Of a stretch of DNA of 64,000 bases, positions 58,615 to 60,495 are shown one piece after another; positions within the stretch are counted from its first letter, which is position 1, and every line of letters starts with the position of its first letter. A program made the position numbers and the translations under genes. The DNA comes from Alphaproteobacteria bacterium (GTDB lineage: Bacteria; Pseudomonadota; Alphaproteobacteria; GCA-2731375), in contig CBDDBZ010000031.1 of the NCBI GenBank assembly GCA_965225945.1, positions 201,561-265,560 of the forward strand, in the 5' to 3' direction. Below the pieces are notes generated by a model. The model was not told the DNA's origin and did no database searches. It saw only the letters and a program-made list of their open reading frames with translations.

Positions 58615-60495
58615 TTGCGCCAGGCGAACTGGCAGAAGGTAGGGGGTGCAAGTCCCCCGGAACGAAGGAGTAACCGAACCACGTTTCTCCGCGAGCCGTG
58701 CGTTGGCTCCCGTGAGGGGGCAGGCGAAGCGTCGGTAGCGGCATGGATGGGCAGGGCTATTGAGCACCGTAAAAGCGATGGTCCGGGGTGCCGAGGCTTT
58801 CAGATCGGTCGAAGGCAATATCGCAGGCGTCGTTTTGGTGAGATGTCGGCGAGCCCCGCGGTGTCAGAGAACCCATGCACGTTCGCACGCCTTCTGTTGG
58901 GACCCTGGGAGGTCTTCAAACTGCCCCGGTTGTCGTAAAGGGGCCGCGTAGGGAATGGAGAAAACCGAAGCCTATGATGAACGGTTTGAAGAAGTCGGAT
59001 GAGGCCGTACGACCTGTGAGGGCGGCGAACAAGGGAGCGCGAGCTTCTGCGGAGTCGCCGGAGGAAAGGGCCTCAACCAAGGGGAATCCGGATTGCCAAA
59101 GCACGCGCCGAACCCAGTGTCGGGTAAGCGTGCCACAGGCGGCGGCCCGGATACGGAAAGCTGCAGAGAGAAACCCGAAGGAAGGTCTCACTGCGCTCTT
59201 CCACCACATTACGCCGGACGCGCTCGGTGCGGCCTACTTCGCATTGAAGAAGGACGCAGCAGCCGGTGTCGACGGCGTTACGTGGGACATGTACGGCGAG
59301 GGTCTGGATGAGCGCCTGCTCGACCTGCACCGGCGCCTGCACAGAGGGGGAGCGTACCGGGCGCCGCCGGTTCGGCGGGTAGAGATACCCAAGCCGGACG
59401 GGGGGACACGACCGCTCGGGATCGCGGCGCTGGAGGACAAGGTCGTCCAGAAGGCGGTTGTGGATGTGATCCTGACACCGATCTACGAGGTGGTGTTTCT
59501 TGGCTTCAGCTACGGGTTCCGACCGGGGCGGGGGGCGCACGATGCGCTCGATGCCCTGGCCTTCGGGATAAAACGGCGCAAGGTCAGCTGGATAGTCGAT
59601 GCAGACCTCCGGGCGTACTTCGACACGATCCCGCGGGATTGGTTGATCACGTTCCTAGAGCACCGCATCGGAGACAGGCGGGTCATCCGTCTGATCCGGA
59701 AATGGCTGAACGCCGGCGTCATAGAGAGTGGGTCATGGGCAGATACGGGTATGGGCACGCCGCAGGGGGCAATAGTCTCCCCCGTCTTGGCGAACGTGTT
59801 CCTGCATTACGTGCTCGACTTGTGGTTCCACAAGAAATGGCGCCCGAACGTCCCGGATGGCGAAGCGATCATCGTCCGTTACGCTGACGATATCGTTGTC
59901 GGGTTCCAACACAAGCGGGATGCGGAGCGGTACCTCCGCGACGTTCGGGAGAGGCTGGCCCGGTTCGGTCTCAGCCTCCACCAGGACAAGACCCGCCTCG
60001 TGGAGTTTGGCCGGTTCGCGGATTTGAACCGGCGCCAGCGCGAGGTGGGCAAGCCGGAGACTTTCGACTTTCTGGGCCTCACGCACTATTGCACGACGAC
60101 CCTGAGAGGACGCTTTCGGCTTGGTCGCAAACCGGTCGCCAAACGGGTCAACAGGACCCTGGCGCGCATCGACGAGGTGCTCCGCAAGCGCTGGCACCAC
60201 GACATCTGGGAAGTTGGTAGGTGGCTGGGGCGAGTCTGCAATGGCTGGCTCAACTACTTTGCCGTCCCAGGGTCAGGCCGGTTCATCCGTGCGTTCCTCC
60301 GCAGGCTGCAACGCCGGTGGATGCGGGCGCTACGCCGCCGGTCCCAGCGAGCCCGATTTAGTTGGAAGCGACTGGAGCGCATGACCGAAATCCTGTGGCC
60401 ACGCGCCTCCATCCGCCACCCATGGCCGGACCAGCGGTTTGCCGTCAAGCACCCGAGGTAGGAGCCGGATGGTTCAACGACCACGTCCGGATCTG
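58615..60495 (+). mobile_element. Group II intron copy 1 (class E-like), domains I-V, no domain VI
   Basis: 5' end (t)tgcgcc, RT ORF, domain V at 60462-60493, then the next copy directly. Confidence 0.9.
58875..60461 (+). CDS. ltrA: Group II intron reverse transcriptase/maturase, no endonuclease domain (true start may be GTG ~59130)
   Basis: AAGVDG, IPKPDGGTRPLGI, SYGFRPGR, GTPQG, RYADD, FDFLG and terminal HPWP...KHPR. Confidence 0.95.
   Translation: MHVRTPSVGTLGGLQTAPVVVKGPRREWRKPKPMMNGLKKSDEAVRPVRAANKGARASAESPEERASTKGNPDCQSTRRTQCRVSVPQAAARIRKAAERNPKEGLTALFHHITPDALGAAYFALKKDAAAGVDGVTWDMYGEGLDERLLDLHRRLHRGGAYRAPPVRRVEIPKPDGGTRPLGIAALEDKVVQKAVVDVILTPIYEVVFLGFSYGFRPGRGAHDALDALAFGIKRRKVSWIVDADLRAYFDTIPRDWLITFLEHRIGDRRVIRLIRKWLNAGVIESGSWADTGMGTPQGAIVSPVLANVFLHYVLDLWFHKKWRPNVPDGEAIIVRYADDIVVGFQHKRDAERYLRDVRERLARFGLSLHQDKTRLVEFGRFADLNRRQREVGKPETFDFLGLTHYCTTTLRGRFRLGRKPVAKRVNRTLARIDEVLRKRWHHDIWEVGRWLGRVCNGWLNYFAVPGSGRFIRAFLRRLQRRWMRALRRRSQRARFSWKRLERMTEILWPRASIRHPWPDQRFAVKHPR

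Follow-up and report, generated by a model that had tools for sequence, protein, structure and literature searches.

A mobile group II intron whose guide matches the domain V end of its own class, probably nested within itself in an alphaproteobacterial genome

Why does a gene near the end of an alphaproteobacterial contig run into nearly identical blocks of DNA joined head to tail, and what put them there? The stretch considered here (the window) is 64,000 nucleotides (nt) long and corresponds to positions 201561-265560 of contig C31 of the source genome, G000 (G000:C31:201561-265560; C-numbers are contigs of G000 and L-numbers are fetched loci). The contig ends where the window ends. From 58615 to that end the window sequence consists of 2.86 tandem units of 1881 nt on the plus strand, and directly upstream lies the 5' part of a bacterial alpha-2-macroglobulin (A2M) gene. 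We consider 58615-64000 to be, probably, the 5' portion of a twintron array, in which one mobile group II intron is nested in itself; exon-binding site 1 (EBS1) of this intron matches the domain V end of its class.

The 1881-nt unit, or body, comprises domains I-V and a UG linker, and the whole intron, with a 38-nt domain VI, measures 1919 nt. It was read complete from a solo copy on the minus strand (C20:119926-121843), where the 1881-nt unit is followed by the 38-nt domain VI. The window holds three bodies, all on the plus strand: copy 1, the outermost (58615-60495), copy 2 (60496-62376), which lies between domains V and VI of copy 1, and copy 3 (62377-64000, intron positions 1-1623), which is stopped by the contig and window end. 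The bodies of copies 1 and 2 are 99.6% identical over positions 2-1881. Rfam family RF02005 (group-II-D1D4-6) matches the domain I-IV core at full length in copy 1 (58649-58873; 163.7 bits, E 2.2e-47), copy 2 (60530-60754) and copy 3 (62411-62636), with scores of 158.6-163.7 bits against a cut-off of 49; by these matches, class placement is established only as this family. The open reading frame (ORF) of the intron-encoded protein occupies 58875-60461 in copy 1 (longest ORF 528 amino acids; the true start may be further downstream) and 60756-62342 in copy 2, followed by domain V and the UG linker at 60462-60495 (placed by fold and by the RF00029 alignment of the solo copy) and 62343-62376, respectively. 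Each unit carries such an ORF, which lies in domain IV. A Pfam scan of the copy-2 protein gave a reverse-transcriptase domain, RVT_1 (126.4 bits), and a maturase domain, GIIM (21.6 bits, cut-off 23), and found no endonuclease domain.

Domain VI has been displaced from the window by the insertion of the next copy, and the group II hallmark of domain V with a domain VI that has a bulged branch-point A was found on the solo copy instead. There, RF00029 aligns domains V and VI (35.4 bits, E 1.8e-4, gathering score 40), and domain VI folds with -21.4 kcal/mol (z -4.2) and carries a bulged A 7 nt from its end. The intron begins with GTGCG, in agreement with the group II 5' end GUGYG, in copies 2 and 3 and in every other full copy of the genome; copy 1 begins with TTGCG. 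In G000, 14 units are full or nearly so, five are partial and one is a fragment. The copies are 99.2-100% identical to one another, and near-identical copies at so many sites are only an indirect sign of retromobility.

What, then, directs the intron to its sites? The sequence-only reading had assigned EBS1 by eye to a loop in domain I complementary to the bases ahead of each copy, and its coordinates proved exact throughout. The hairpin (58790-58816) reads gcc-ga-ggcu-UUCAGAUC-gguc-gaa-ggc, with UUCAGAUC as an 8-nt loop (58799-58806) that includes CAGATC at 58801-58806; the corresponding six bases of copies 2 and 3 are 60682-60687 and 62564-62569, respectively. CAGATC is complementary to GATCTG at 60490-60495 and 62371-62376, directly before the GTGCGCC of copies 2 and 3, and, with one G-U pair, to GGTCTG at 58609-58614, the intron-binding site 1 (IBS1) in the host gene. 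Copy 2 uses as its IBS1 the six bases with which the domain V and linker of copy 1 end, and copy 3 follows the same six bases of copy 2. In isolation the hairpin folds as drawn, at -9.4 kcal/mol, an energy that is unremarkable by itself (z -1.24). It aligns to the conserved stem/internal-loop/stem/9-nt-loop element of RF02005.

Covariation with the 5' flank gave a stronger test of the assignment. A profile built from three G000 introns yielded 98 hits in 79 fetched loci encoding protein homologues, and the loop and the 30 nt upstream of the 5' end were read for each hit; alignments short of position 1, non-GTG starts, flanks shorter than 30 nt and duplicates (same flank and loop) were left out, which gave 53 introns with 29 distinct loops. 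With the best 6-nt window and G-U pairs allowed, the loop paired with the last 6 nt of the flank at 6/6 positions in 40 of the 53 introns, 5/6 in nine, 4/6 in three and 3/6 in one; three of the four introns at 4/6 or below stand directly after the domain VI of another intron. Among 2512 mismatched loop-flank pairs, 6/6 was reached in 2.4% and 5/6 in 18.4%. Two other introns of G000 follow the same rule, with loop GGGUC and flank ...GACCC|GTGCGCC in intron B and loop CCCGU and flank ...GCGGG|GTGCGCC in intron C. Introns with the CAGAUC loop had 20 distinct 5' flanks, of which 18 pair 6/6 and two 5/6; all 20 are G(A/G)TCTG or a one-off variant, and none is unrelated. On the covariation and the Rfam alignment, which together bear out the by-eye assignment, the CAGAUC loop is EBS1, the predicted guide, which recognises the end of the 5' exon by base pairing.

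Two further modes of recognition were considered. A second pairing, EBS2/IBS2, was sought, and GCGAUG (58775-58780), single-stranded 5' of the EBS1 stem, complements CATCGC, a sequence found 10-16 nt ahead of the inserted intron at transposase-gene sites on C20 of G000 and in L031 of genome G002 (L040 has CATCG); it stays a candidate only, as CATCGC-type pairing is absent at domain V sites and at most other sites, and intron B shows no consistent register. Hairpin recognition in the style of class C (IIC) introns, whose short IBS1 closely follows a terminator or attC hairpin, was rejected, because four of the six IBS1 bases belong to the domain V helix itself (its 3' strand) and do not follow it, because most ordinary sites have no domain V-like context, and because the best Rfam family is RF02005.

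How general is the sequence that this guide matches? The ORF end and domains V and VI of the C20 copy, used as a query in the fetched loci, found 92 domain V/VI regions, nearly all ending ...CGGATCTG and then TGCGGGGGG. Domain V plus linker of the class usually ends ...CGGAUCUG, followed by UGCGGGGGG of domain VI, and the commonest junction is GGAUCUG|UGCGGGG; the general Rfam consensus of domain V is ACGGUUCuG. Distinct junction contexts chosen by the pattern GG[AGT]TC[TC]G then [CT]G[CGT]GGGG (n=43) comprised GATCTG in 32, GTTCTG in six and GGTCTG in one, with T at +1 in 36; the pattern pre-filters this set, so that the counts describe and do not test. The suggestion of the sequence-only reading that the matched bases are a conserved domain V end holds, in that they are the 3' end of domain V plus the UG linker in their commonest class form. 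Within this domain V the G of the catalytic AGC triad stands opposite A (GAGCC...GGAUC), not the usual U, and most of the 92 regions are alike; the 'E-type' host intron described below differs, with GAACC...GGGUC. A relative in Sinorhizobium meliloti (52% protein identity) is a remnant with an RF00029 match only and no domain I match, and has the same GGAUCUG domain V end. Domain VI of the lineage in the window (e.g., C20:119926-119963) begins with C (CGCGGGG), where the class norm is T (TGCGGGG).

The perfect six-base complementarity between EBS1 and the intron's own domain V, both within one molecule, might be taken for a structural or regulatory contact inside a single RNA that has nothing to do with targeting. 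The class domain V end is nearly constant, however, while the loop occurs in 29 sequences that follow the 5' exon, and in a conserved RNA contact the loop should covary with domain V instead of the exon; a loop that varies against a constant partner argues against a pairing role within a single RNA. Besides, the fold puts four of the six bases in the region of the domain V helix (three paired, one in a G-A mismatch). Such an intramolecular role is hardly credible to us. Rather, 29 forms of EBS1 beside a constant domain V end suggest that the guide of this lineage came to match a fixed feature of its class.

Did the tandem bodies arise by insertion of the intron into itself? Wherever bodies are in tandem in G000 they abut at GGATCTG|GTGCGCC, and each array closes with 38-nt domain VI units, which where repeated are joined at GTAAC|CGCGG; 27 such units occur in 10 places. 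Body junctions and stacked domain VI units together indicate that each intron was inserted between domains V and VI of the previous copy. One body with one domain VI unit is found on C20 (the solo copy, minus strand), on C24 and on the plus strand of C34. One body is accompanied by three domain VI units on the minus strand of C34 and on C39. C33 has 1.55 bodies and five units, C38 at 142 kb 1.41 bodies plus a fragment and six units, C38 at 556 kb at least 3.46 bodies (to the contig end) and four units, and C37 two bodies, interior to the contig, and one unit; on C35 an array stopped by the contig end has two units. Of the 18 self junctions in G000, eight are occupied, and the 10 empty ones belong to innermost array copies or to solo copies. 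Since domains V and VI are separated in every outer copy, the arrays would have to be spliced sequentially, from the inside out.

Assembly error, in the form of a dispersed multi-copy repeat wrongly concatenated, could in principle mimic such arrays: the copies are 99.2-100% identical, and three arrays, that of the window among them, reach the end of a contig. The junctions, however, are exactly those that homing predicts (IBS1|GTGCG and GTAAC|CGCGG), not arbitrary overlaps, and the two-body array of C37 does not touch a contig end. Nor would wrong concatenation explain domain VI stacks of up to six units with an in-frame A2M exon behind them, or copies nested in foreign introns in independent assemblies. 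We consider an artefact very improbable. Some arrays appear to have been altered after their formation. At C37:375067-378878 two bodies lie within the domain V end of intron B with one domain VI unit and without an intron B domain VI, an arrangement that points to a later deletion. Insertion-sequence ends interrupt bodies at C38:144739-146156, upstream of 307775 on C33 and at about 400900 on C34; one and the same insertion-sequence end adjoins intron position 821 on C38 and position 845 on C33, and the E-type host intron is truncated by a different one.

Which sites does the intron occupy beyond its own copies? In G000 the 5' flanks comprise its own domain V (GGATCTG), the domain V of intron B on C24 and C37 (GGATCTG), the domain V of a third intron on the minus strand of C34 (GGGTCTG), an IS3-type transposase gene on C20 (GGGTCTG; HTH_Tnp_1 23 bits, cut-off 24.1), and A2M and one more gene, on the plus strand of C34 (both GGGTCTG). 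The same intron (93-98% identical) is present in genomes G002 and G037. G002 has six full copies at ordinary sites, and a fragment inserted into a 70%-related intron precisely where its domain V ends. Of the two copies in G037, one occupies an ordinary site and the other the domain V end of an 'E-type' intron. A further metagenome-assembled genome (MAG) has five copies, all at ordinary sites, and in another genome an 82%-related intron sits in a foreign domain V end. The intron-in-domain-V arrangement is found in at least five genomes, and the foreign hosts' domain VI resumes beyond the inner intron with exact boundaries, as in a twintron.

Occupancy is best judged against the sites on offer. 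The 14 ordinary sites with both flanks known have G at -7 in 10 cases and T at +1 in 11. Of the 8685 G(A/G)TCTG sites in G000, 2259 have G at -7, and 254 of these have T at +1 as well; the ordinary sites occupied are three with both flanks known and at most three arrays whose 5' side has been lost. A pattern scan and a profile search together found seven foreign domain V/VI junctions in G000, and all three that end in G(A/G)TCTG are occupied, compared with none of the four that end in GTTTTG, an EBS1 mismatch. Per available site, then, domain V ends are used far more often than ordinary sites. The sequence-only reading had named the domain V end as the preferred target; that stands per available site (3/3 against about 3-5 of 254 ordinary sites) and fails by count, given 15 non-intron insertions. 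Its picture of an intron that parasitises introns likewise stands in part, with foreign and own domain V ends occupied, and needs qualifying in part, with ordinary genes also hit and self junctions empty in three other genomes.

These figures leave room for an account in which the match to domain V is incidental. The real homing site would then be a host or insertion-sequence motif, such as the IS3-type transposase site GGCATCGCCG(A/C)GG(G/A)TCTG|T, domain V hits would be by-products of an identity of 6-7 nt, and the arrays would have arisen by unequal crossing-over after a single nesting. Homologous transposase-gene sites are hit in G000 (C20) and G002 (L031), and CATCG, complementary to GCGAUG at 58775-58780, lies upstream in three of the 14 sites and, interrupted, in a fourth. 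Several further observations favor this account or otherwise weigh against a domain V-directed intron. By count, 15 insertions at non-intron sites in four genomes stand beside four in foreign domain V ends plus those in self, although recombination, and perhaps the transfer of whole twintrons together, confounds such event counts. The copies in G002 (seven, six with the self junction shown), the MAG (five) and G037 (two) are all solo with unoccupied self junctions, so that no self-nested copy was found in these three genomes and self-homing is not automatic. The self junction has C at +1, as against T in 11 of 14 ordinary sites; a domain VI that starts with C, while targets prefer T at +1, could lessen self-targeting. 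Body and domain VI counts disagree in several arrays (1.55/5 on C33, 1/3 on C34 minus strand and on C39, 2/1 on C37), an imbalance to be expected if repeated bodies, or repeated domain VI units, recombine with one another, and the arrays in G000 may owe much to unequal recombination. The flank of intron B is identical at C24 and C37, and that of the E-type intron nearly identical in G000 and G037; some foreign-host insertions may therefore be one event later copied, not independent ones. Finally, the RF00029 and GIIM scores fall slightly under their curated cut-offs.

What counts against an incidental match is that the matching foreign junctions are occupied in three of three cases, compared with only about 3-5 of the 254 ordinary GG(A/G)TCTGT sites. 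The arrangement recurs in at least five genomes, an unrelated ORF-less intron with the same loop is found at the same junction, and the ten separate arrays and solo sites of G000 each require at least a founding event of their own. On balance we think that account unlikely, while granting it real weight, and prefer an intron whose guide has come to read the domain V end.

What has become of the A2M gene? Its 5' part (55987-58614; Pfam bMG3, MG2, bMG5, bMG6, A2M_BRD and A2M) ends ...GCG CCG GGT CTG in frame. The 3' exon lies on the minus strand of C38, from 141848 downward, after the six domain VI units at 142 kb, with the thioester domain at C38:141528-141860 (minus strand) and the thioester motif YPYGCTEQ. 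Behind the sixth unit the sequence TTGGCGAGC... translates to LASLRDYPYGCTEQ, in frame with the window's ...DAPGL. An exon that continues the frame behind six domain VI units indicates that A2M holds a nest about six deep, of which the window array forms the 5' side. C35 was rejected as the partner contig; its end overlaps the end of C31 in intron sequence, but its 3' flank is not A2M. One of the six domain VI units ahead of the A2M exon begins with T. Copy 1 starts with TTGCGCC (T at 58615), a detail absent from the sequence-only reading, where other full copies have GTGCGCC. With U at position 1 this copy probably cannot splice, and for that reason this A2M gene is probably dead. Two overlapping plus-strand ORFs in different frames, 54776-56095 and 55987-58938, cover the start of A2M, and the gene may carry an additional frameshift upstream of the intron. 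Elsewhere in the window, a tRNA gene lies at 1783-1856 on the minus strand (Rfam RF00005, 62.7 bits).

Was A2M hit as a look-alike of domain V, as had been proposed from a match of the wider context? Positions -20 to -8 and +1 to +10 were scored against a matrix derived from those 43 contexts. Compared with random G(A/G)TCTG sites, A2M falls at the 88th percentile, which is not beyond chance, and its mimicry of domain V beyond the core is not supported by this scoring. Taken together, the 14 ordinary sites do outscore a random set of 8653 such sites from G000 (Mann-Whitney p = 0.003), but the likeness rests largely on the T at +1 (p = 0.07 without that position; p = 0.35 for +2 to +10 alone). 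The domain V likeness of ordinary sites thus seems confined to the core that the intron reads.

Other introns use the same junction. In two fetched loci (L076 and L077, both 4560-5391), the host is of RF02005 type, and an 832-nt ORF-less intron separates its ...GGGATCTG exactly from its TGCGGGGGG. Domain I of this guest matches another Rfam family, RF02003 (70.9 bits), and the loop of the guest's EBS1-like hairpin, GUUCAGAUCC, contains CAGATC. Six bases further in, the ORF-less intron C of G000 (about 650 nt, loop CCCGU) is inserted after TGCGGG inside the domain VI of intron B, which resumes behind the guest. Both layers are combined in a triple nest on the minus strand (G000:C24:80339-82985; loci L005 and L025), where intron B holds the window's intron at its domain V|VI junction as well as intron C. 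In L052 (2741-5656) and L054 (2741-5655), the host domain V is followed by one full intron and then by ORF-less relatives of about 730 nt, head to tail, with the domain VI of each unit abutting the next 5' end and with loops CAGATC and CCGATC beside domain V ends GATCTG and GATCGG; these arrays look as would be expected if new copies enter at the retained IBS1 ahead of the resident intron. By this tally at least three lineages would use this region: the CAGAUC intron, which encodes a reverse transcriptase, the RF02003-type 832-nt ORF-less intron and the ORF-less CCCGU intron. A broader proposal, on which our judgment is evenly divided, is that GGAUCUG|UGCGGG|GGG, a conserved segment that covers the end of domain V, the linker and the beginning of domain VI, serves as a shared landing pad for a guild of introns on introns, with at least three lineages, ORF-less guests that borrow the host protein, and runaway self-homing arrays six deep. 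As separate observations, the guest-in-domain-VI arrangement recurs on C33, and L073 is a dense nest of seven RF02005-type 5' regions about 600-670 nt apart and one RF02003-type region, in which several intact GGATCTG|TGCGGGG junctions are unoccupied and the EBS1 loops of the resident introns differ.

How might such arrays form? Beside the observed pairing rule, exact junctions, intact ORFs and near-identity of copies can be set a predicted course of events. The EBS1 sequence CAGAUC would select G(A/G)TCTG sites in DNA, usually with G at -7 and T at +1. By analogy with endonuclease-less introns, the intron RNA, guided by EBS1, would reverse-splice into DNA and would then be copied into cDNA by the reverse transcriptase from a primer at the replication fork; both steps are described for such introns (PMC4424553 section 8; PMC5894124 section 4). 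Because the domain V end of the class matches the guide, every matching intron of the class, self included, carries a target, and A2M, the IS3-type transposase and other genes are hit because they carry the same short core. Each insertion would bring a fresh copy of the target, and repeated homing into the innermost copy would give a run of bodies and then a run of domain VI units, whose numbers later recombination between bodies or between domain VI units could unbalance. Only inside-out splicing would remove an array from RNA.

What would follow from such a specificity? The domain V/VI junction is among the least variable stretches of the ribozyme, and a guide that reads it would gain a target in matching relatives as well as in itself. 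It might also be a harmless place to multiply, with splicing of the host intron then depending on prior splicing of the guest; for the bacterial host, the consequence here is an A2M gene split by an intron nest six deep. The occupied and empty sites, with an IBS1 that is perfect, wobble or mismatched and with T, C or G at +1, form a ready-made target series for asking to what extent specificity in an endonuclease-less intron is set by EBS1 alone. Automated intron surveys set aside multi-intron loci or miss the outer intron (PMC4028801, PMC8919778), and surveys that drop multi-intron loci will miss systems of this kind.

How, finally, does the array compare with known introns within introns? 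Twintrons and nested arrays are already known, and what would be new here is the apparent specificity for the domain V/VI junction. Full-text searches on twintrons, homing sites and the Rfam family turned up no bacterial intron that homes into the domain V/VI junction, although Dai & Zimmerly 2003, Simon et al. 2008 or supplements could hold one. RmInt1 of S. meliloti, a class D/IIB3 intron, homes into an insertion sequence. Like the intron described here it has no endonuclease domain, it reaches high copy number, and its ribonucleoprotein reverse-splices into single- or double-stranded DNA without second-strand cleavage, according to excerpts of PMC5894124; it differs in that the same excerpts do not describe the targeting of introns (PMC5894124). 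In the twintrons of Thermosynechococcus elongatus the inner copies are identical and the outer ones diverged, but in the passages of PMC2882425 on them the site is in domain IV, between two ORF start codons, the inner intron is ORF-less and unlike the outer one, and deep self-nested arrays like those of G000 do not feature (PMC2882425). The lycophyte mitochondrial intron cox1i1149g2 is closer in having inserted into its own copy; it differs, in the part of its description available, as a single event at position 652 in an organelle, with a non-splicing inner copy, not at the domain V/VI junction and without arrays (PMC7049729).

A twintron of Trichodesmium is located in domain I. In the plastid twintrons of Euglena, many inner introns lie in domains V or VI. 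These twintrons, the subject of Copertino & Hallick 1993, are introns within introns that require sequential splicing (PMC4424553). They differ in being organellar and degenerate, and are not known to depend on an EBS1 complementary to a class-conserved domain V end. A close parallel is Methanosarcina acetivorans, where homing into intron ORFs is said, going by the title of Dai & Zimmerly 2003, to have been described. In this archaeon, as summarised elsewhere, site-specific homing into related introns has been repeated until as many as five introns were nested, insertions are offset by deletions through homologous recombination, the arrangement amounts to a perpetual homing site, and the flanking exons are without coding ORFs (PMC4424553 section 17, PMC2882425). 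Nested arrays with such a balance of insertion and deletion resemble those of G000. As far as those summaries go, the case presented here is set apart by its domain V/VI junction site, its self-homing, an array within the protein-coding A2M gene and its alphaproteobacterial host.

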